Shown piece by piece: positions 10,439-35,743 of a stretch of 36,821 bases of DNA. Position 1 is the stretch's first letter; each line of letters starts with the position of its first letter. Below the pieces are notes generated by a model. That model saw nothing but the letters and a program-made list of their open reading frames with translations. It had not been told where the DNA came from and ran no database searches. The stretch is from a virus. Lineage: Duplodnaviria > Heunggongvirae > Uroviricota > Caudoviricetes. The stretch is taken from the IMG/VR virus record IMGVR_UViG_3300013426_000020, one strand, 5' to 3'. Position numbers and translations under genes: made by a program.

Positions 10439-11149
10439 ATGAAGGTCTGTGTCATAGGAGATATTCATGGAACAGATAAATGGCATGAATGTTATCGAAA
10501 AATAAGAGAAAATGACAATGACTGTCAAAGAATAATCGTCTGTGGAGACTGGTTTGATCCATATGATGATATTCCATTTGAAATGATGATGGAACATTAT
10601 AATGAATTTCTCAATGATTTGAAGAATGATAATAGGATAATATCCCTTCTGGGTAATCATGATCTTGATGGTTATATAATATCCAGTGAGACAAACAGAA
10701 CTTGCAGGATAAGAAATATATATAAGCAAATAACTGATGCATTGACTTCAAATCTGTTGAATTCTTATCTTGTATATAGAATAGGAAACTGGTTGTTTTC
10801 ACATGCTGGTGTCAGTCAGGACTGGATTGATGACAATATTGAATACAAGGATATGATATTGTCAAATAAAAAAGGATGGACTATTGATGAACTTGAAGAA
10901 TTATGTGCATACAGTCCATATGACTGGTCTGGATATGGAAACAATGCAAGACAGGGATGCACATGGATAAGACCACAGGCTCTTGTAAAAAGTCATATTG
11001 AAGGATATAATCAGGTGGTGGGTCATACAAGGGTTGAAAGAATGTTCAACTTGAAGGATGAGATTGAAAACTTTGATACAAATATCTGGATTGTAGACAA
11101 TTGTGGAAAACCTGAATATTTGACTCTTGAAATTGAAGATTGCGAATGA
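10439..11149 (+). CDS. Calcineurin-like metallophosphoesterase
   Basis: GDIHG, GDWFD, GNHD, SHAG, GHT motifs. Confidence 0.9.
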   Translation: MKVCVIGDIHGTDKWHECYRKIRENDNDCQRIIVCGDWFDPYDDIPFEMMMEHYNEFLNDLKNDNRIISLLGNHDLDGYIISSETNRTCRIRNIYKQITDALTSNLLNSYLVYRIGNWLFSHAGVSQDWIDDNIEYKDMILSNKKGWTIDELEELCAYSPYDWSGYGNNARQGCTWIRPQALVKSHIEGYNQVVGHTRVERMFNLKDEIENFDTNIWIVDNCGKPEYLTLEIEDCE

Positions 11150-12974: not shown

Positions 12975-14000
12975 ATGAGCAAGAATGTAATCAGTATGGG
13001 AATTGAATGTCCCATTGTAAGAGAATGTGATGATATTGTAAATATTGTTGTTAATAATGTCCTGAAACACCAGATTGATGACTATGATGTCATAGGAATT
13101 ACTGAAAGTGTGGTGGCAAGAGCAAATGGACTTTATGTTTCTGTGGATGAAATTGCAGAAGATATTGTGAAGAAGTTCGGTAAAGATCAAACAATAACAC
13201 TTGTCTGTCCCATTTACAGTAGGAACAGGTTTTCAATGATTTTGAAGGGTATCGCACGGGCATCAAAGAAAATTGTATGTATCATGCCTGAATGTGATGA
13301 AGTTGGGAATCCGAAAGGTGTGAATCCCTTTACAGGAGTGAATGTCGAGAAATATTATAAAGAAATCTGTGAAACAGAAAATTGTGAGTTTTTTGTACAA
13401 GAATCTTTGTCATTTACATCAGACTGGAAGGATGGCAATTGGATAGACTGTCATCTTCATAACTATACAAGACATACTGGAGAAAACAAACATTATTGCC
13501 TTGCTGACATATGTGCAGACAAGAATCCAGATTTCGGTCTTCTGGGAACAAACAAGGCTACAGAAGAAAGGCTCAAACTCTTTCCTACAAGAGAACTTGC
13601 TGACAGGGTGTGTGATGAAGTCAAGAAAATAGTGAAGAAAAGAACAGGAAAGAATGTGATTGTGATGATTTATGGGGATGGATCATACAAGGATATTGAT
13701 GCTGGAATCTGGGAAATGGCTGATCCTGTGAGTGCTCCGGGATATACTGACAAAGGTCTTCTTGACAGGACTCCTTATGAAATCAAGCTCAAATATTTTG
13801 CAGATCTGGGATACACTGACAAGGAAATACAAGAAGAAATATTCAAGAAAGACCTTATGAGTGATCTTGGTAAGAACAAGATGCAGACACAGGGAACAAC
13901 ACCGAGAAGATATGTGAATCTTCTTGCATCTTTGATGGACTTGACCACTGGATCAGGAGAAAGGGCAACACCGGTGGTTCTGGTGAAAAATTATTTCTAA
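12975..14000 (+). CDS. Coenzyme F420-0:gamma-glutamyl ligase (CofE)-like protein
   Basis: GIECPIVRECDDIV, DVIGITESVVARA, DLTTGSGERATPVVLV. Confidence 0.75.
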   Translation: MSKNVISMGIECPIVRECDDIVNIVVNNVLKHQIDDYDVIGITESVVARANGLYVSVDEIAEDIVKKFGKDQTITLVCPIYSRNRFSMILKGIARASKKIVCIMPECDEVGNPKGVNPFTGVNVEKYYKEICETENCEFFVQESLSFTSDWKDGNWIDCHLHNYTRHTGENKHYCLADICADKNPDFGLLGTNKATEERLKLFPTRELADRVCDEVKKIVKKRTGKNVIVMIYGDGSYKDIDAGIWEMADPVSAPGYTDKGLLDRTPYEIKLKYFADLGYTDKEIQEEIFKKDLMSDLGKNKMQTQGTTPRRYVNLLASLMDLTTGSGERATPVVLVKNYF

Positions 14001-14007
14001 AAAAAGT

Positions 14008-14039
14008 TGAAGGACAGTGTAAATCACTGTCCTTCATTT
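14008..14039. terminator. Bidirectional terminator
   Basis: tgaaggacagtg-taaat-cactgtccttca between convergent genes. Confidence 0.85.
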
Positions 14040-14041
14040 GA

Positions 14042-14815
14042 TTACCATTGAAGTAATCGCGGTGTATATGTATATCCCACCGTCACACCCACACCTATTG
14101 TGGGGATGAACTTCTGGGAAGAAAAGTCATAACCCATACCTATATTTGGACCGACAGCAATACCTATACCGTTCTTCTTTCTGTTTGATCTTTCATATGT
14201 CTTTCCATTTTCTGCAACCACACCCATACCCGAATTGAATACAAGGTCAGGATAATCAGATCTCAAATGTATGTATGTCTCGTTTGTCTTTGTGTTTCTT
14301 TCAAGCCATCCTTCTATGAAAATGTTCTGTTCAATACCTATTTCTGCTTTATCAGTGTATAATTTATTGTCTTTCACTTCATATGGTATCTTTCCTGATA
14401 TTGACCTGCTTGACTTTCCATAATTGTCTTTTCTTGCAAAGGATATTGTGTCATTGTCATTTACACCCACTTCCCTGATTATGACAGTTTCAATCTTTAC
14501 TGTATCCTTTATGTTCATACTCGAATTGATATAAGACAGATATTCCATATTCTTCTTTTTGAGAAGACCTATGCTGTCCCGGAGTTCCTGTTGTGTGAGC
14601 TGATATGCATGTTTCTCCGCATTTATTCTTCCTATTTCATCTTTATATGATACAAGTTGTTCAGTGAGAACCTTTCTGTTATTTTCCTGTCTGTCAATCT
14701 CATTGTCAAGATTGTCTATCTTTGAACACTGTCCTGAAATGGTTATACCCATCACAATCAATATGATGATATAAATCAAGTCCCTGTATTTCTTTATGAA
14801 TTCAAAAACTTTCAT
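14042..14815 (-). CDS. Membrane-anchored coiled-coil protein with Gly-rich beta C-terminus (possible spanin-like)
   Basis: N-terminal TM, coiled coil, GIGIAVGPNIGMGY..IGVGVTVGYTY; pattern typical of Bacteroidota phages. Confidence 0.6.
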   Translation of the reverse strand: MKVFEFIKKYRDLIYIIILIVMGITISGQCSKIDNLDNEIDRQENNRKVLTEQLVSYKDEIGRINAEKHAYQLTQQELRDSIGLLKKKNMEYLSYINSSMNIKDTVKIETVIIREVGVNDNDTISFARKDNYGKSSRSISGKIPYEVKDNKLYTDKAEIGIEQNIFIEGWLERNTKTNETYIHLRSDYPDLVFNSGMGVVAENGKTYERSNRKKNGIGIAVGPNIGMGYDFSSQKFIPTIGVGVTVGYTYTPRLLQW

Positions 14816-15759
14816 TTTTTCTTTATATATAAATTGTTTATATTGTCTATGATGGTGTCAATTACATCAATTACAAGATCATTTGAGACTTTTCCTGACT
14901 TTGATGTAATAAATGTTTCACGATATTTATTTGTTTCTACTTTGAAACCTTTATCAATCAACATATTTATAATTGGTTCTGATGGTGTGAATGGAATCAA
15001 TTTCAGTTCTTCTATTCTCATAAAGTCTGTTGTGAAGTCTGTTGTGAAACCTATTTTGAGAACAGGGGGGTTGATGTCATCATCTGAAGAATTCAATTTT
15101 ACACAAAATTGATCTGTGTGGGTTTTATAAAATGGTTTTGATGAATCTGTTCTTTTATATCTGTCATTAAGATAATCCATAAACTCTTTCATATCAAGAC
15201 TGTTAACATATCCTGTTTCTTCCTTTCTTTTGTTTCCAGATAAGTCTCTTTTTGCAATATCACCGAGAATACCTTCTGTTATCTTATCATTTCTTTTTAT
15301 GTATAAATCATCAACATTGTTTATAAACAAATCCATTATCTTTATAACCATATCATTTGAAACTTTATTTTCTTTTGATGTGATGATATATATATAAGAT
15401 GATAAACTTACATCAAATCCATTTTTATCAAGTATGTCAGCAAACGGTTTTGATGGTGTTACTGGAACAAGCAAGATTTTATGAAGTTTCAGTCCATTTG
15501 ATGAAAACTTCAAATGCATATATGACATATTTTCTCGTGATAAAGATGTTTTTAATCCTACTACTATCTCAAATGTTGTTGTGTTAAAAAAAACATCATC
15601 ATTAACATAATCAGTTCTCCTGTATAATTTGTTCAAATAATCTTTAAACTCATTCATGTCAAGATTATTGATGTCATCTTCTTTTTTTTCTTTTCCAGTA
15701 AGATCTCTTCTTGCAATGTCTCCAAGAATCCCTTCTGATAATGTACTCAATTTTTTCAT
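14812..15759 (-). CDS. GILGDIA leader family protein with internal tandem duplication
   Basis: Leader motif at the N-terminus and again mid-protein; the two halves are similar. Confidence 0.85.
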   Translation of the reverse strand: MKKLSTLSEGILGDIARRDLTGKEKKEDDINNLDMNEFKDYLNKLYRRTDYVNDDVFFNTTTFEIVVGLKTSLSRENMSYMHLKFSSNGLKLHKILLVPVTPSKPFADILDKNGFDVSLSSYIYIITSKENKVSNDMVIKIMDLFINNVDDLYIKRNDKITEGILGDIAKRDLSGNKRKEETGYVNSLDMKEFMDYLNDRYKRTDSSKPFYKTHTDQFCVKLNSSDDDINPPVLKIGFTTDFTTDFMRIEELKLIPFTPSEPIINMLIDKGFKVETNKYRETFITSKSGKVSNDLVIDVIDTIIDNINNLYIKKK

Positions 15760-15814: not shown

Positions 15815-16285
15815 ATGGGTATGAAAATTATAATTCCAATAGGTATTTCAGGTTCTGGAAAATCAAGATTATATGATATGGAGTATCAGGATTATGTGAA
15901 GGTATGTCCAGATGATATTCGTAGGGAATTGACAGGAAATATAAGTGATCAGTCAAGAAACAGGGAAGTGTTTGAACTTGCACAAAAAATGATTGATGAC
16001 TGCATTGCAAATGACAGAGATGTGTTTTATGATGCAACTAATATTAATAGCGAATACAGGAAGAAGTTTGTGAACAAATATAAAGGAACAGATGTGAAAA
16101 TCGTTTATGTGATACTCCCTGCCGATGTGAATGTATCAAATGAAAGGATAAAGAATGATTTGAATACTGGTGTTGATAGGTCAAATGTTTCATATCAGGT
16201 ATTGTTGAGACAGTATGAGATGTATAAGGAGACATTAAATTCACAGTTCAAGGATGAGAATGTAGATGAAATAATTTATTTGTGA
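15815..16285 (+). CDS. Polynucleotide kinase-like P-loop kinase (AAA_33 type)
   Basis: GISGSGKS Walker A, CPDDIRREL, FYDATN. Confidence 0.8.
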   Translation: MGMKIIIPIGISGSGKSRLYDMEYQDYVKVCPDDIRRELTGNISDQSRNREVFELAQKMIDDCIANDRDVFYDATNINSEYRKKFVNKYKGTDVKIVYVILPADVNVSNERIKNDLNTGVDRSNVSYQVLLRQYEMYKETLNSQFKDENVDEIIYL

Positions 16286-16346
16286 TTATGTAATTATTTT
16301 ATAAATGATATACACATAAATACATTATAAAATAAGTTTATAATGT

Positions 16347-17252
16347 ATGTGTGAATATGTAAAATACTGTTCAATTTGTGGTTCTCCTATGATATATAGT
16401 TCATTGGATAGTTTTAGAGCAAATAAAAAACATATAATATGTAGAAGTTGTGCCAGAAAGGATATGTTTAAAAGAATATATCCTAACAAAATAGAGAAAT
16501 TATTATTAGATACACCAGAAACTTATTATTGGATTGGATATCTGTTATCTGATGGACATATAGATAAGAATTGTAGAATCAAATTTACACAAAATGGGAC
16601 TGATAAAATTTCTGTTGAAAAATTTAGACTATATTTAGAAGGTAAATGTGATATAAAATATAGTAAAAATGTAGATCAAGCAAGTTTTTCAATTATGAAT
16701 AAAGATATTATTTCACAAATTGCAAAAAAATTTGATATAAAATCAAATAAAACATATAATCCACCTAAAAAAGAAATATTTGAACAAATGGATATAGATT
16801 TACTTGCATATCTATTTATTGGTTTTGTTGATGGTGATGGACATATTGCAAATTTATACAAAAGAACAGATTTTCAATTGAGTATACGAGTTCATTCATC
16901 TTGGTATGATATTATCAATGTATTTGCTGAAAGACTCTTTGGATTATATAAATATGTTAAAATTACCAAAGATGGATATTGTATGTTTGCGATAGGTAAT
17001 ACAAAATTATTAAAAGATTTTAAAAGAAAATATTTGACAAATATATCATTTGAACCTTTAAAGAGAAAGTGGGATGTAATTGATTTAAATTATATTGGTA
17101 AATATGAAAAATCGGAAATAAATTTCAAAAATGTAAAAGAATTATATTTAAAACATTATGATATAAAAACAATTTGTAAATTATTGAATCTTAAAGAAGG
17201 TTGTGTTTACAAAAAAATTAGAGAATTAAAAAATGAAATGTTTAACAATTAA
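16347..17252 (+). mobile_element. Free-standing LAGLIDADG homing endonuclease
   Basis: Two motifs, YWIGYLLSDGHI and LFIGFVDGDGHI; more AT-rich than its neighbours. Confidence 0.85.
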
Positions 17253-17270
17253 TATATTTAAGTCCGAAGT

Positions 17271-17887
17271 ATGTATACACTAAAAATAGAAGATCTAAGT
17301 AAGGTATACTTTACTTCGGACACCTAACTCACTTTTCGCATTTCCGAATTTGTCAGTATTGCAATAGACCTTTTGAGTCAAGGAGTGATATGGACAGAAC
17401 ACTTATTGAGAACTGGAATTCAGTTGTTCCGGAAGATGGAATAGTAATCTGTTGCGGAGACTTTATGCTTCCACATGATACAGGACTCAAGGAGTATGCA
17501 AAATATATGAAGCAACTCAATGGGACTATCTATATGACATCTGGAAACCATGATAGAATTGATGTGGGTGAATATTGTATTGAAGATGAAATCAAACCCA
17601 AACTGATTGTCAATGATATGATGTTTGTCAATGTCGATAGTAAGAAGATATTTGCACAGCATTATCCATGTATTGCTTTCAATGGGGATTATCAAGTGTA
17701 TGGTCATGTCCATACACTGTCTGATGGAACAGTGAATGGTGAGGATAGTGATGTTGTGTGGAAGACAAGGTGGAATCAGTATGATGTGGGAGTTGACCAG
17801 AATGGATATAAGCCTGTGTCATATAAGGAACTTATGAAGATTTTTGACAAAAGAAGAAAGAAAAATGAAGAACATAAAGAGTTTTGA
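17271..17887 (+). CDS. Calcineurin-like phosphoesterase interrupted by an in-frame TAA and a 5-nt frame offset
   Basis: MYTLKIEDLSKVYFTSDT* (17271-17327), then HFSH..CNRPF..MDRTLIENWN, GDF, GNHD, HYP, GHVH from 17330 in another frame. Confidence 0.75.
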
Positions 17888-19200: not shown

Positions 19201-20598
19201 ATGAATAATATCAAAATAAGCAAAAGCAAGGGGTTCAAGGATGAATATTGTGCAACTTGTGTAAGAATAGGAGAAATTTTTCCTATTGAAGGTAAGGATA
19301 GGATTGTTAAGACAATGGTGAATGGTCTTTCCATTGTGATAGGAAAGGATGAGTTCAAGACTGGTGATGTTGCGGTTTATTGTGCAAATGAAACAATGAT
19401 ACACGAACTGTATCTACATCTCAACTCTATGTATGATGACCCGTTTCTCAATCTTGACAATACAAAGAAGGGGTATATCAACAAGCATGGAAGAATTCGT
19501 ATCGTCAAGCTTGGTGGTGTTCCGTCATATGGACTTCTTCTCAATCCTGAAAGTCTTGCTGTGTTTCTCAATATTTCAAAGGATGAGGTTGTGGAATTTC
19601 TTGAATCACATGTGGGGGAAGATTTTGATGAGATCAATGGAGAAAAGTTTATACAGGTTTATATACCACCTGTGAGAAACAATAGACAGAATATGTCAAA
19701 GTCTGACAGAAGACAGAAGAAACTTGACAGGTTCAAGATGCTCATTGAGGGAACTTTCAGGTTTCATTATGATACGGAAGGATTGCAGAAGCATATGAAT
19801 GAGATAAATCCGGATGATGAGGTATATATTTCAGTCAAGGCACATGGTACATCATCGATATTCGCTAATGTTCTCACAAATGTTCCAACTCCCTGGTATA
19901 AAAGGTTTTGGAGAAAATATGTGAAACATATAAATGAGTATGATCAGAAATATAATCTGGTATATTCTTCAAGGACTGTCATCAAGAATGAGTATATCAA
20001 CAAGAACCAGAAACCAGGTGGATATTATTCTGATGATGTATGGGGATACTGGGCAAAGAAACTTGAAGGTCTTGTCCCGAAGGACTGTGAGATATTTGCA
20101 GAGATTGTAGGTTATACACCAAATGGAACAGCGATACAGAAAGGTTATGACTATGGATGCAAACCATTTGATGAAGAAAAGTCGAAATTGATGGTATATC
20201 GTATGACAGACAAGGGCAAGGAACTTGAAATTCCTGATGTAATGAGATATGGAAAGTATCTTCATGATAAACTGGGAGACGTTATCATTGAATTTCCGTT
20301 ATTGTATCAGGGATTGATGAAAGACTTGTATCCTGATGTTTCAACTACAGAACATTGGCATGAGAACGTGCTTGAACTTTTGAAGAACGAAAAGAGATTT
20401 CTGATGGAAAAAAATGAACCTATGTGCAAAAACAAGGTTCCGAGGGAAGGATTTGTTTTGAGAAAGGCAAATGATCCTATACCGGAAGCATGGAAGTTGA
20501 AATGTTACCATTTTCTCTCACATGAAAGTGCTGCAATTGATGCAGGTGAAGTTGACTGCGAAATGCAGGAAGGATATGGAGATGAACAAAATTTATAA
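19201..20598 (+). CDS. ATP-dependent RNA ligase (Rnl2/DRB0094-like)
   Basis: N-terminal OB-like domain, SVKAHGTS (motif I), FAEIVG, REGFVLR, WKLK. Confidence 0.85.
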   Translation: MNNIKISKSKGFKDEYCATCVRIGEIFPIEGKDRIVKTMVNGLSIVIGKDEFKTGDVAVYCANETMIHELYLHLNSMYDDPFLNLDNTKKGYINKHGRIRIVKLGGVPSYGLLLNPESLAVFLNISKDEVVEFLESHVGEDFDEINGEKFIQVYIPPVRNNRQNMSKSDRRQKKLDRFKMLIEGTFRFHYDTEGLQKHMNEINPDDEVYISVKAHGTSSIFANVLTNVPTPWYKRFWRKYVKHINEYDQKYNLVYSSRTVIKNEYINKNQKPGGYYSDDVWGYWAKKLEGLVPKDCEIFAEIVGYTPNGTAIQKGYDYGCKPFDEEKSKLMVYRMTDKGKELEIPDVMRYGKYLHDKLGDVIIEFPLLYQGLMKDLYPDVSTTEHWHENVLELLKNEKRFLMEKNEPMCKNKVPREGFVLRKANDPIPEAWKLKCYHFLSHESAAIDAGEVDCEMQEGYGDEQNL

Positions 20599-20696: not shown

Positions 20697-22088
20697 ATGC
20701 AGACAATAAAGCTGAAATACAAAGTAAGTGAAGAAGACAAGGACTTGTTGTTTGAATATATTAGACAATACAATTCCTGTCTGCATTTTATGTATAACAG
20801 GTTGATTGACAATTCAGACATCACAGAAAAGGAGATGAGAAGTCTGACAATCAATAATATACCACTGTTGAATTATTATCTCATACAATGCTCCATAAAG
20901 GAGTCATTCCAGATAAAAGCATCCACAGATGAAGACAAGAGAATAATCTTTGGTGGGAAGGACAACTTCATCAAGAGATGTCAGGGAAAGATTTCAAAGG
21001 AAGAATTCTTGAAGAAAAGGACAAGACCACTCTATTCAATAGGAGATAAGGAACATACAAATAGATTGTTTGCTTTTGATGACATAAACACTATTGTGTT
21101 CAAACCCAACAGAAAAACACATATAAGACTTGATGTTTCTTGTAATTTTCATAAGGGATATAGAAAGATAATCAATAAACTATTTGATTGTCAATTACAT
21201 AAGACTATAGGTCTGACCTTCAAGGTTGACTTGAACTATATTTATATCTCATTTGATGAGACAATTCTCAAAGAACATGAAAGCAAGAAGATGGAGAACA
21301 GGGTGTTCTCAATAGATTTGAACCCCAACTATGTAGGATGGTCAGTTGTTGACTGGAAGTCTTCAAGTGAATTCAGTGTTGTCTCTTCTGGTGTGATATC
21401 AATCAAAGAACTGAATGACAAACACTTTGCTTTGAAGAAATCAAAGAAGAACCCAGATGGTCTTTCATCAGACCATCCAAAGAGAATCCATCTCAACAAC
21501 AAAAGAGAACATGAAGTCTATGAAATCTCCAAGAACCTGATAGACAAGGCATTATATTACAGATGTTCTTTGTTTGCAGTGGAAGACTTGACCATAAAAC
21601 CATCAGACAAGAAGAAAGGTTCAAAATACAATTCTCTCTGCAACAACCTGTGGAACAGAGACAAGATGGTGAACAATCTCAAGAAAAGATGCATTATCTA
21701 TGGACTGAAATTGTTTGAAGTTCAACCAAATTACTCAAGTTTCATAGGGAACTTTTTATTCAGGGACTTGAATCTCCCTGACATGGTTCTTGCTTCAATT
21801 GAAATCTCAAGAAGATGCTATGAATTTTATAATCAATATGTTATAAAGATAAAACCACAAAGAAAGAATATAATACAGCCTGAAATCAATGAGTTCTATG
21901 ACAGGTACATCAAGTCATTGGAAGAATTTGATGTACATGGAGAATTCAAGGATTTCAAGGATGTTTATTCTTTCTTCAAAAGCTCTAAAATGATGTATAG
22001 GGTTTCTCTGGATTCTTTGAATCCAAAGTTTTTCAGCTTGAATACAAGAAAATCCTACGTAGGACAGTGTTACTTTTGTTATTTTTAA
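20697..22088 (+). mobile_element. tnpB: TnpB-like RNA-guided nuclease (IS200/IS605-IS607 type), no tnpA nearby
   Basis: RuvC motifs FSIDLNPN, FAVEDL, VQPNYSS..PDMVLASIEISRR. Confidence 0.75.
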
Positions 22089-22918: not shown

Positions 22919-24346
22919 ATGACAAGAGAAAAATTCAATAACATTGTTGACTATATAAGAGATATAATTACAGGAACTGAATTCTATAATCATATATATG
23001 TGGTAGGTGGTGCCTGTAGAAATTTGTATATGGGAAGGGAGATAAAGGACATTGATATCGTGATTGATCTTCCAGATGGGGGTGTGAAGTTTGCAAACTG
23101 GTGCAAGGAGAAAGGATATACAAAGACTGTGGTCATATATGAAACATATGGGACGGCAATGTTCAAACTGCATGAGTTTCCTGATGATGAGATTGAATGT
23201 GTAATGACACGGGGTGAGAAATATCTTGATAATGGATCAAGAAATCCTGTTGTTGAATTCTGTTCATTACAGGAAGATGCGATAAGAAGGGACTTCACAA
23301 TAAATGCACTTTATTATAATGTCTCCACTGGTGAAATGGTGGATATGGTGAATGGAAGGAATGATATTGATGATTGTATTATCAGGACAACAAATCCCAA
23401 TCCGGATTTCATATTTCAGGAAGACCCATTGCGGATTCTCCGTGCGGTAAGGTTTTCATGTGTATATGGTTTTTCAATTTCACAAGATACATATGATGCT
23501 ATGAAAAGAAATGCAGACAGACTGGAAATCATTACAAAGGAAAGAATACAGTCTGAACTGAATAAAATACTTATGTCAAATGATGCATCAAGAGGTATAA
23601 ATATTCTTCATGACATAGGAACCATGAAATATATTGTTCCTGACTTTGACAAGTGTTATGGTCTGGAGCAGAATGAGTATCATTTTGGTGATGTTGCTGA
23701 ACATACTCTTGCTGTTCTTGAACATCATTGTGATGTATTTGAACCGAATCTTCCGGAAAGACTTGCATGTTTTCTTCATGACATAGGAAAGGTATATACG
23801 AAATCCGTCAAGAATGGGAAGATACACTTTTATGATCATGAACATATGGGTGCGGAATTGAGTGTTGACATTTTGAGAAAACTCAAATATGATACAAATA
23901 CAATAAAGGAAGTGTGGTTTCTCATAAAAAATCATATGAGAACAAAGCAGGCAGGTATAGGAGGAAGACTTATGAAGGACAAGTCATTGAACAAACTTCT
24001 TTATGAATGCAAGACAAATGAACGATTTATGTCATTGATGAGGGTGATAGAGTGTGACAATATGTCTCATAAAAAAGAACACAATATACAGGGACAGTTT
24101 GCTGAACTTATCACAAGAGTTGAACATAGTCCGCAACATATGAAGATGTTCGGTTATAGACTTCCAGTTGACGGAAATGATATAATGGAGATATTGAAGA
24201 TTGAACCGGGTGAAATCATAAGTGAGATAAACAGAAGGCTTCTCAACCATGCTTTTATAAATCCAGATATCACCAGAGATGAATGTATCAAAATTCTACC
24301 GGGAATAAAAAGGGAAGCAGAAACATATATAATGAAAAATAAATGA
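22919..24346 (+). CDS. cca: CCA-adding tRNA nucleotidyltransferase with HD domain
   Basis: YVVGGACR..KDIDI, RRDFTINAL, EDPLRILRAVRF, H..GDV..HT, LHDIGK. Confidence 0.92.
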   Translation: MTREKFNNIVDYIRDIITGTEFYNHIYVVGGACRNLYMGREIKDIDIVIDLPDGGVKFANWCKEKGYTKTVVIYETYGTAMFKLHEFPDDEIECVMTRGEKYLDNGSRNPVVEFCSLQEDAIRRDFTINALYYNVSTGEMVDMVNGRNDIDDCIIRTTNPNPDFIFQEDPLRILRAVRFSCVYGFSISQDTYDAMKRNADRLEIITKERIQSELNKILMSNDASRGINILHDIGTMKYIVPDFDKCYGLEQNEYHFGDVAEHTLAVLEHHCDVFEPNLPERLACFLHDIGKVYTKSVKNGKIHFYDHEHMGAELSVDILRKLKYDTNTIKEVWFLIKNHMRTKQAGIGGRLMKDKSLNKLLYECKTNERFMSLMRVIECDNMSHKKEHNIQGQFAELITRVEHSPQHMKMFGYRLPVDGNDIMEILKIEPGEIISEINRRLLNHAFINPDITRDECIKILPGIKREAETYIMKNK

Positions 24347-29941: not shown

Positions 29942-30013
29942 AGTCTTGTGGTGTAATGGTAGCATAAACCACCTGAAAGTGGAAAGATGAAGGTTCAACT
30001 CCTTTCAAGACTA
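29942..30013 (+). tRNA. Atypical tRNA-like gene (Phe GAA-like, 6-nt anticodon loop)
   Basis: AGTCTTG/CAAGACT acceptor, normal D and T arms, ccac-CTGAAA-gtgg anticodon arm. Confidence 0.6.
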
Positions 30014-30034
30014 CAAAAAGTTCTTTGAAAAACT

Positions 30035-34341: not shown

Positions 34342-35175
34342 ATGCAGCCTGTAATAAAATGGACTGGAAGCAAGAGAAGTCAGGCAAATGAACTGATAAA
34401 GTTATTTCCGGGAGAAATGAAGACATATTATGAACCTTTCTGTGGAGGGGCATCTGTTTTGAGAACTCTTCTTGACAATATACAAGAATACACCATAGAA
34501 AGGTTTGTCTGTTGTGATATTGACAAAAATCTCATCAATCTCTGGAATGCCATAAAGAATACTCCGGAGAAGATTATTGATGACTACAGGATTATGTGGT
34601 CAGAACTCAATTCGGCAGGGACAATAGAAAGAAGATGGAAGATATGGGGAGACATAAGGACGAGACTGAATCTTCAACATAATCCGTCAGACTTTATGTT
34701 CATAACGAGAACTGCAACGAATGGGATGACGAGATATAATGCGAAAGGTGAATTCAACAATTCATTTCATATCACAAGGGTTGGAATGAATCCGGAAACA
34801 CTGAAGAAGATTGTCTTTGACTGGTCAAGTATATTGAACAGATACAATGTCAATTTTGAGTTGAAAAGTTATTTGACCCTGAACCCAGAAGAAGGTGATT
34901 TCTGCTATCTTGATCCTCCTTATTATAACACGAAGGCAATATATCAGGGAGGTTTTGACAGTAATAAACTTTTTGAATGGATAAGAAACCTGAAATGTGG
35001 ATATGTGTGGTCTTATGATGGTATTTCTGGAGATAAGGACAATACAGCTTTAGTCCCTGAAGATTTATATGACAGACATATATACCTGAAGTCCGGTAAT
35101 TCATCCTTCAAGAGAACGACAGGAAAGGACAAAAATGCTATGGTTTATGAATCAGTTTATATAAAGTCCAGATAA
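34342..35175 (+). CDS. dam: DNA adenine methyltransferase (Dam/D12 class)
   Basis: IKWTGSK, YYEPFCGGASV, YLDPPY. Confidence 0.9.
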   Translation: MQPVIKWTGSKRSQANELIKLFPGEMKTYYEPFCGGASVLRTLLDNIQEYTIERFVCCDIDKNLINLWNAIKNTPEKIIDDYRIMWSELNSAGTIERRWKIWGDIRTRLNLQHNPSDFMFITRTATNGMTRYNAKGEFNNSFHITRVGMNPETLKKIVFDWSSILNRYNVNFELKSYLTLNPEEGDFCYLDPPYYNTKAIYQGGFDSNKLFEWIRNLKCGYVWSYDGISGDKDNTALVPEDLYDRHIYLKSGNSSFKRTTGKDKNAMVYESVYIKSR

Positions 35176-35289
35176 TTTGTTATATTTATAATGTTGATGA
35201 AATAAAAGTTCATAAATATATGAAGATTTCTCAAATCTTTGTTATATTTATAATGTAAGTTCTTTGAAAGACACACATATGTTTCTGTA

Positions 35290-35356
35290 AAGATTCAGAC
35301 CGCAAAAATTATTTTATAATGATGCACCATTTTTTTCGCATAGACAACAGAATCTT
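35290..35356 (+). ncRNA. Repeated stem element with ACCGCAA motif, copy A
   Basis: aagattc/gaatctt stem enclosing agaccgcaaaaattatttta. Confidence 0.55.
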
Positions 35357-35377
35357 GTTTTGAAACATTTGAGATAT

Positions 35378-35665
35378 ATAGGTCTTGTTGATACTTTCGG
35401 GAAAGACTGTAGGACGAGAGTTCGAATCTCTCCAGATCCACAAAGATTATTTATAAATGGGTCTGACTTGGTTTTTGACTGCTTTTGAGTATGGGAAGAG
35501 GAGAGGTCTATCGCCAATTAGATGGCAACAATGTTTACTCTGTAAACTTCGGTGCTCCTGCACAGCAGACACAGAAGACTATGGTGGCCTTTGCCTAAAT
35601 AGTTTTGGTCATCCCCGAGGTTGGGATCACCCAGAGGGTTCTTTCCGTCTTTCCATAAAGACGGT
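35378..35665 (+). ncRNA. ssrA: Circularly permuted (two-piece) tmRNA
   Basis: GGAC + gagag-TTCGAAT-ctctc + CAGATCC-A (35412-35440) lies upstream of GGGTCTGACTTGGTTTTTGAC (35459-); G3:U70 pair; tag frame 35524-35598 ends in VAFA-stop. Confidence 0.85.
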
Positions 35666-35669
35666 CAAT

Positions 35670-35743
35670 GGCCTGATAGCGTAATTGGTTAGCGCATCTG
35701 ACTGTTAATCAGGGGGTTATAGGTTCAAGTCCTATTCAGGCCG
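35670..35743 (+). tRNA. tRNA-Asn(GTT)
   Basis: GGCCTGA/TCAGGCC acceptor, CT-GTT-AA loop, G73. Confidence 0.95.

Follow-up and report, generated by a model that had tools for sequence, protein, structure and literature searches.

Can an enzyme be made from a gene that stops after 18 codons, in the middle of its own metal-binding motif? The question is raised by a metallophosphoesterase gene in the 36,821-nt stretch of Caudoviricetes phage DNA analyzed here, which we call the window throughout. We describe the interrupted gene and its natural variants and then weigh the ways in which such a gene could be expressed, or not expressed at all.

An interrupted metallophosphoesterase gene

The gene consists of three parts:

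17271-17324, plus strand: first coding segment, 18 codons ending in Asp17-Thr18, with the take-off codon ACC at 17322-17324
17325-17329, plus strand: coding gap of 5 nt, in which the stop TAA (17325-17327) overlaps the landing codon ACT (17327-17329)
17330-17887, plus strand: second coding segment, the metallophosphoesterase body (PF00149), 185 codons from His19

The frame opens at ATG 17271 and runs through Asp17 (GAC, 17319-17321) and Thr18 into the stop. The landing codon shares the last A of this stop and is followed directly by His19 (CAC, 17330-17332), from which the frame is open to 17887. A first-pass annotation had proposed exactly this layout, with a take-off Thr codon ACC, a stop, a second Thr codon 5 nt on, and a continuation from 17330, and had argued that bypassing the insert restores the active-site motif. 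Both points hold. With the 5 nt skipped, 18 + 185 codons join into 203, the length of the intact relatives P0128 and P0001 (203 aa each), and the Asp-x-His spacing is regained. Across the gap site, P0128 reads FTSDTHFSHFRICQYCNRPF; this relative matches phrog_547 (E = 8e-40) and PDB 1XM7 (E = 6e-7). Asp17 and His19 are invariant among 39 homologues, and both align with the SDTHF motif of PDB 1XM7. The calcineurin-like motif set (DxH, GD, GNH, H, and GHxH) is complete only if the gap, which splits DxH, is skipped. The GD, GNHD, HYP, and GHVH motifs that had been called intact are indeed whole in the window's frame, as is DVG.

Ahead of His19, in its own frame, no standard start codon is present. 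The first Met of the second segment is ATG 17390, and the 165-aa frame that begins there is what gene callers report; eight of nine members of the cluster to which this product belongs begin, truncated, at the same Met. Gene callers truncate gapped enzymes, which are then at risk of being misread as pseudogenes. P0018 (162 aa) was also considered as a truncated enzyme and was rejected, being an intact gene with a miscalled start.

The gap recurs in diverged alleles

The window's 165-aa downstream product is present on 17 contigs and a sister allele on 59, and the same gap was found in all 21 loci read that encode such downstream products. Related loci come from gut and bovine metagenomes. Because the gap recurs in many independent assemblies and in about 17 diverged alleles, with lengths of 5, 6, 7, and 8 nt and with TAA, TGA, and TAG all in use, the assembly error initially considered is excluded. 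In the comparison with relatives that the annotation had recommended, the gap, the stop, and the usually matched Thr codons recur among gap alleles, and uninterrupted relatives also exist.

Homologue searches that did not filter on the gap returned the alleles ACC-TA-ACT (window, L009 type, and L039), ACT-TA-ACT (L020 and L038), ACT-TG-ACT (L034), ACC-TAAAG-ACT (L032 and L117), ACC-TAAAG-ACC (L118), ACA-TGAGA-ACG (L161), and ACT-TAGG-GCT (L163). A 7-nt gap, ACC-TAAG-ACT, was found in L116 at a single contig end; the case is weak and could reflect a homopolymer error. Further alleles from pattern scans were ACC-TA-ACT (L165 and L166), ACT-TA-ACT (L169), ACG-TA-ACG (L167), ACT-TGA-ACT (L168), and ACG-TAG-ACC (L182). 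The pattern behind L165 to L169 required Thr-stop-Thr, and these loci are therefore no evidence for conservation of the stop. In every interrupted allele from the protein and endonuclease searches, where the gap was unfiltered, a stop immediately follows Thr18.

In 14 of the 16 distinct alleles, take-off and landing use codons of a single Y or R box, the imperfect landing codons being those of L182 (ACG to ACC) and L163 (ACT to GCT). Counted over Thr/Thr alleles, the boxes are Y/Y in 12, R/R in 2, and R/Y in 1, so that 14 of 15 stay in the same box (Fisher P = 0.03, on alleles that are not independent and with kinship uncorrected).

These variants bear on whether a change of frame or a recoded stop could join the two segments. 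A -1 (or +2) frameshift in the window allele would give D-T-L-T-H or D-T-T-H, and the commonest gaps, 5 and 8 nt, fit the -1 frame alike, a frame that has no stop across the gap. We nevertheless consider this very unlikely, as a slippery site is absent, tRNA-Thr cannot re-pair at the -1 triplet CAC, the added residues would break the invariant Asp-x-His spacing, and alleles with 6- and 7-nt gaps exist. Gaps of 5 to 8 nt place the resume codon in all three frames, and a fixed frameshift or readthrough therefore cannot serve. Stop-codon recoding or readthrough was also rejected because 19 of 30 long ORFs in the window end in TAA, more than in any other stop, and the frame would stay wrong.

Broader searches returned little. 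An exact 17-mer scan gave only two unrelated chance matches (L001 and L002), and a pattern scan of genome contigs gave two chance matches, both in unrelated genes. Among INPHARED phages there was no match to the cassette DNA or to the endonuclease described below, only distant phosphoesterases, and a single-protein search of viral contigs returned nothing.

A covarying hairpin ends at the take-off codon

The DNA just upstream of the gap encodes a strong predicted RNA structure:

17262-17321, plus strand: 5' hairpin, in which the 5' leader and codons 1-3 pair with codons 12-17, up to the last base before the take-off codon

The hairpin has a predicted energy of -22.4 kcal/mol (z = -6.4). It buries the start codon of the phosphoesterase, its 3' end is the Asp17 codon, and in the predicted fold, where the stem ends at 17321, the take-off codon and the gap are unpaired. 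Across 11 alleles, 97.6% of cells are paired and three pairs have changed on both sides. This amounts to 10 doubly changed cells, a number reached in none of 500 shuffles and compared with at most 1 in slid controls, although kinship among the alleles inflates these counts. RNAalifold recovers the same stem. The mean hairpin z-score is -4.4 in 15 gap alleles versus +0.15 in 36 intact alleles. When loci were scanned for the codons of YFTSDT, with no stop required, a strong hairpin was accompanied by the stop and gap at all four phosphoesterase loci that had one, and three to four without it were uninterrupted; L167 has the gap with a short stem only. Distant gap alleles have a short-loop stem with a different 5' arm, and its 3' arm still stops at or beside the Asp codon before take-off. 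A structure closing behind a ribosome that has paused at Thr18 would be expected to have such a fixed 3' end. The first-pass annotation was right about the gap and about a mobile element, and it overlooked both this covarying hairpin and the link to an endonuclease.

In L039 (2420-2520) and L161 (1040-1130), the start codon within the hairpin is ATA or TTG and an in-frame ATG lies 13-14 codons upstream; initiation may therefore have moved in these two loci.

A hairpin at a fixed position relative to the gap could instead be the signal for removing the 5-8 nt at the RNA level, either by cutting and sealing the mRNA or through skipping by RNA polymerase. The genes on either side of the phosphoesterase fit the former, since the three together could heal and seal RNA:

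15815-16285, plus strand: Pnk-like P-loop kinase (AAA_33), the resident upstream gene (PF13671, E = 3e-15; phrog_505, polynucleotide kinase)
19201-20598, plus strand: RNA ligase of a putative RNA-repair cluster (phrog_968, E = 7e-46; TIGR02306, weak)

We judge RNA-level removal to be unlikely all the same. Wobble-matched Thr codons and an in-frame stop, which may be any of the three, point to decoding, there is no Rfam intron match around the endonuclease and gap, and polymerase realignment or slippage is implausible given that take-off and landing contexts match at only 2 of 9 nt.

The frame is under selection on both sides of the gap

In the 11 long-hairpin alleles, the cassette-borne codons 1-18 retain their consensus at pS = 0.46, with pN/pS = 0.39 and no stops or frameshifts. 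In the 20 codons that separate the gap from the first Met, pN/pS is 0.19 in the resume frame versus 1.6 and 2.2 in the other two. Codons 19-38 would be untranslated without a hop, yet they are under purifying selection in the resume frame. All 15 full-length gap alleles retain the GD, GNH, HYP/HFP, and GHxH motifs, and their 3' frames are free of any second lesion. Selection on the 3' part may be inherited from intact alleles recently invaded by the cassette; thus, the cassette-borne codons are the cleaner evidence.

This inheritance would also suit a cassette that kills the gene and spreads by homing while the enzyme is dispensable. Homing can spread harmful alleles, and the window has a second metallophosphoesterase gene (10439-11149), uninterrupted and of another subfamily (ApaH/YfcE-like, on weak matches), which could make the gapped one dispensable. 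We assign a pseudogene, an option already raised in the annotation, a very low probability. Codons 1-18, the stop, the landing codon, and the hairpin are kept across endonucleases that are just 58-67% identical, and the lack of any second 3' lesion extends to the full-length alleles that have lost the endonuclease.

The data could also describe a split gene, in which an 18-aa peptide and a separately initiated downstream protein (e.g. from ATG 17390) assemble in trans, or in which the 165-aa product has a role of its own. Assembling halves do occur beside phage homing endonucleases (MobE in nrdA), and the 165-aa frame is the one that gene callers report. This seems extremely unlikely, however, as codons 19-38, including His19, precede the first Met and are nonetheless constrained, no standard start precedes His19 in frame, and the landing codon would be useless.

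A homing cassette carries the gap

The region between the kinase and the phosphoesterase contains the following features:

16288-16293, plus strand: ATG then TAA, the leftover original phosphoesterase start and approximate left edge of the cassette, from comparison with L005
16305-16362, plus strand: hairpin burying the endonuclease start codon (-15.8 kcal/mol, z = -3.8)
16347-17252, plus strand: free-standing, two-motif LAGLIDADG homing endonuclease, 301 aa (PF14528; phrog_4645)

The endonuclease has the LAGLIDADG-like helices GYLLSDG and GFVDGDG, scores 26 bits against PF14528 (cut-off 22.5), and has about 45 homologues at 48-69% identity. In the endonuclease-free locus L005, the intact phosphoesterase starts 2 nt past the kinase stop, at the same position as the window's stopped ATG 16288; the cassette must therefore have inserted where the gene begins and supplied a start of its own. 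The hairpin at 16305-16362 is presumably regulatory for the endonuclease gene; it resembles the hairpins that control translation of homing endonucleases in T-even phages.

An adjacent endonuclease or its remnant accompanies the gap in the window, L009, L020, L032, L034, L038, L039, L116-118, L161, L163, L165, and L169. The gap occurs without an adjacent endonuclease in the distant alleles L166, L167, L168, and L182, and in L160 (2001-3518) a related endonuclease (60%) precedes a phosphoesterase with no interruption, in which the codons around the motif have diverged and the hairpin is absent. The link between endonuclease and gap is therefore not absolute. L160 possibly gained immunity by substitution rather than by a gap.

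A tree built from the 3' part of the enzyme requires 11 changes to explain the gap, of which strong branches force at least nine, and gap alleles are often neighbours of near-identical intact sisters; the gap has therefore spread laterally. Over codons 1-18, the window shares 96-98% identity with L009 and L020 and 56-65% with the intact L005 and L019, and the 3' parts mix. The L009-type and L020-type alleles lost the endonuclease by different deletions, each keeping about 100 nt of its end, and retained the hairpin, the gap, and the open frame. By these sequence comparisons, the endonuclease travels from one gene background to another as a unit with the new gene start, the hairpin, and the gap. 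The mobile element that the annotation had listed as one option is thus a homing-endonuclease cassette to which the gap belongs. Judging from its position and linkage, the gap probably stops the endonuclease from cutting its own allele.

The intron listed as another option is excluded. Rfam is blank for group I and II introns, and the mere 61 nt before the endonuclease ORF and 18 nt after it leave no room for a catalytic core. Alleles with about 100 nt of endonuclease remnant that keep the gap also contradict it.

A putative mechanism of programmed short bypassing

The reading that best accounts for these observations is, very probably, a programmed short translational bypass carried by the homing cassette. 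It was among the first proposals for this locus and is now the best supported; the hop itself, and any efficiency ascribed to it, we infer from the natural variants, the hairpin, and the selection on the frame. Relatives share the design with gaps of 5 to 8 nt, and therefore ribosomes most likely hop.

The cassette would comprise the LAGLIDADG endonuclease, a new 5' leader, codons 1-18, and the short gap. Inserting at the start of the phosphoesterase gene, it would replace the 5' end and place the gap inside the DNA for the conserved Asp-x-His metal-binding motif, probably spoiling the endonuclease's recognition site. During translation, a ribosome would pause at Thr18 with UAA in the A site, the peptidyl-tRNA-Thr would release ACC, and the ribosome would slide 5 nt forward. 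The tRNA would re-pair at ACU, and decoding would restart at His19, giving the junction peptide VYFTSDTHFSHFR. A single tRNA-Thr(GGU) reads both ACC and ACU. The slide would most likely be driven by the hairpin re-forming behind the ribosome, and the hairpin may also hold trailing ribosomes off by burying the start codon. We discounted a different 5-nt hop, on the TACTT-TACTT repeat, since it would delete Asp17.

Comparison with known bypass systems

The parallel with T4 gene 60 drawn in the annotation is borne out in several respects. As in gene 60 and mobA (10.1101/2022.08.31.505936; PMC11194080), the codons for take-off and landing match with wobble latitude and a stop lies right after take-off; an Asp codon directly precedes take-off, and a 5' stem-loop lies behind the ribosome. 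In both systems, the insert sits in a conserved metal-binding region and is linked to an upstream endonuclease, outlasting its loss. P-site re-pairing in gene 60 is described as tolerant (10.1101/2022.08.31.505936; PMC11194080), and its insert protects against MobA by spoiling the recognition site (10.1101/2022.08.31.505936).

The two systems also differ. The phosphoesterase gap is 5-8 nt, a tenth of the approximately 50 nt in T4 gene 60, it uses Thr codons rather than Gly and Asp, the LAGLIDADG endonuclease is unrelated to MobA, and the host gene is a phosphoesterase rather than a topoisomerase. The nascent chain before take-off is just 18 aa and, unlike that of gene 60, has no KKYK-like motif. 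The take-off stem-loop and mini-SD of gene 60 are absent from the phosphoesterase gap, whereas the 5' stem-loop, which is poorly conserved among gene 60 homologues, is conserved here and buries the start codon. The phosphoesterase gap is thus not a member of the gene 60/mobA element.

Synthetic stop-hops of +5 and +6, made as laboratory constructs (Weiss et al. 1987, as cited in PMC5009743), are similar in that matched codons flank or overlap a stop and 8 or 9 nt yield one amino acid; the phosphoesterase design differs in being natural and conserved, with a dedicated hairpin. According to that 2016 review, no natural case of in-frame stop hopping was known, and gene 60 was long expected to have short counterparts (PMC5009743). 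Other natural or proposed bypasses are the Magnusiomyces mitochondrial byps (27-55 nt), the Streptomyces phage Hau3 terminase, and a 29-nt hop in a Prevotella loescheii adhesin. All three share the skipping of a noncoding block with downstream resumption, but their gaps are longer, and in byps and Hau3 the pause occurs at a sense codon that is rare or unassigned; a free-standing homing endonuclease is not described for any of the three in the text covered. Compared with phosphoesterases of the aq_1665 (PDB 1XM7)/phrog_547 type, the joined product has all motifs, and the order of kinase, phosphoesterase, and ligase is the same, whereas known members are uninterrupted.

Natural programmed bypassing is established in very few genes, and in the open-access literature we found no published report of a short phosphoesterase bypass, nor are short counterparts of gene 60 reported there. 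We consider it reasonably likely that minimal programmed bypasses of 5-8 nt make up a natural family that is widespread, and that a single hairpin upstream suffices in them to pass a stop with no take-off stem-loop, mini-SD, or long nascent peptide. Such cassettes would represent a third way, besides introns and inteins, for homing endonucleases to disrupt their target in a conserved motif while keeping the gene alive. The role of mRNA pairing behind the ribosome is an open question in the gene 60 field (10.1101/2024.12.09.627546), and the 60-nt signal is small enough to test whether such pairing alone drives forward sliding. Nature already supplies a set of mutants in gap length, stop, and codon pair.

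Genome context and further observations

A Pnk-like kinase precedes the phosphoesterase, an RNA ligase follows it, and a CCA-type enzyme lies beyond; a role in RNA end-healing is therefore likely. The window appears to come from a large phage genome: it has an NAD-dependent DNA ligase, a methyltransferase, tRNAs, and tmRNA-like genes, and contigs of the sister allele reach 265 kb.

A second interrupted family, with an enzyme about 38% identical, was found in other gut phages (L096 2300-2620, L105 2300-2620, and L141-L159). Its break lies one codon later, with Asp-Thr-His followed by TAG and 4 nt (7 nt in total). It has its own hairpin, which spans the His codon, only a near-cognate landing triplet (TAC), and an intact sister, L040.

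Two overlapping tmRNA calls (34999-35441 and 35349-35689), one of them permuted with a tag ending in VAFA, are both below the Rfam threshold; if the phage has a tmRNA, it could be relevant to ribosomes that stall at the gap. A tRNA gene at 29942-30014, kept in L005 (12254-12326), has a 6-nt anticodon loop, CTGAAA, and no anticodon assignment from ARAGORN. The RNA ligase is followed by a TnpB-related gene (20697-22088), in place of which L011-L013, L016, and L017 have a resolvase and TnpB pair at about 13419-15271. The CCA/HD nucleotidyltransferase is whole in the window (22919-24346) and short or in pieces in several relatives (L005 10742-11207; L009 15508-15861).
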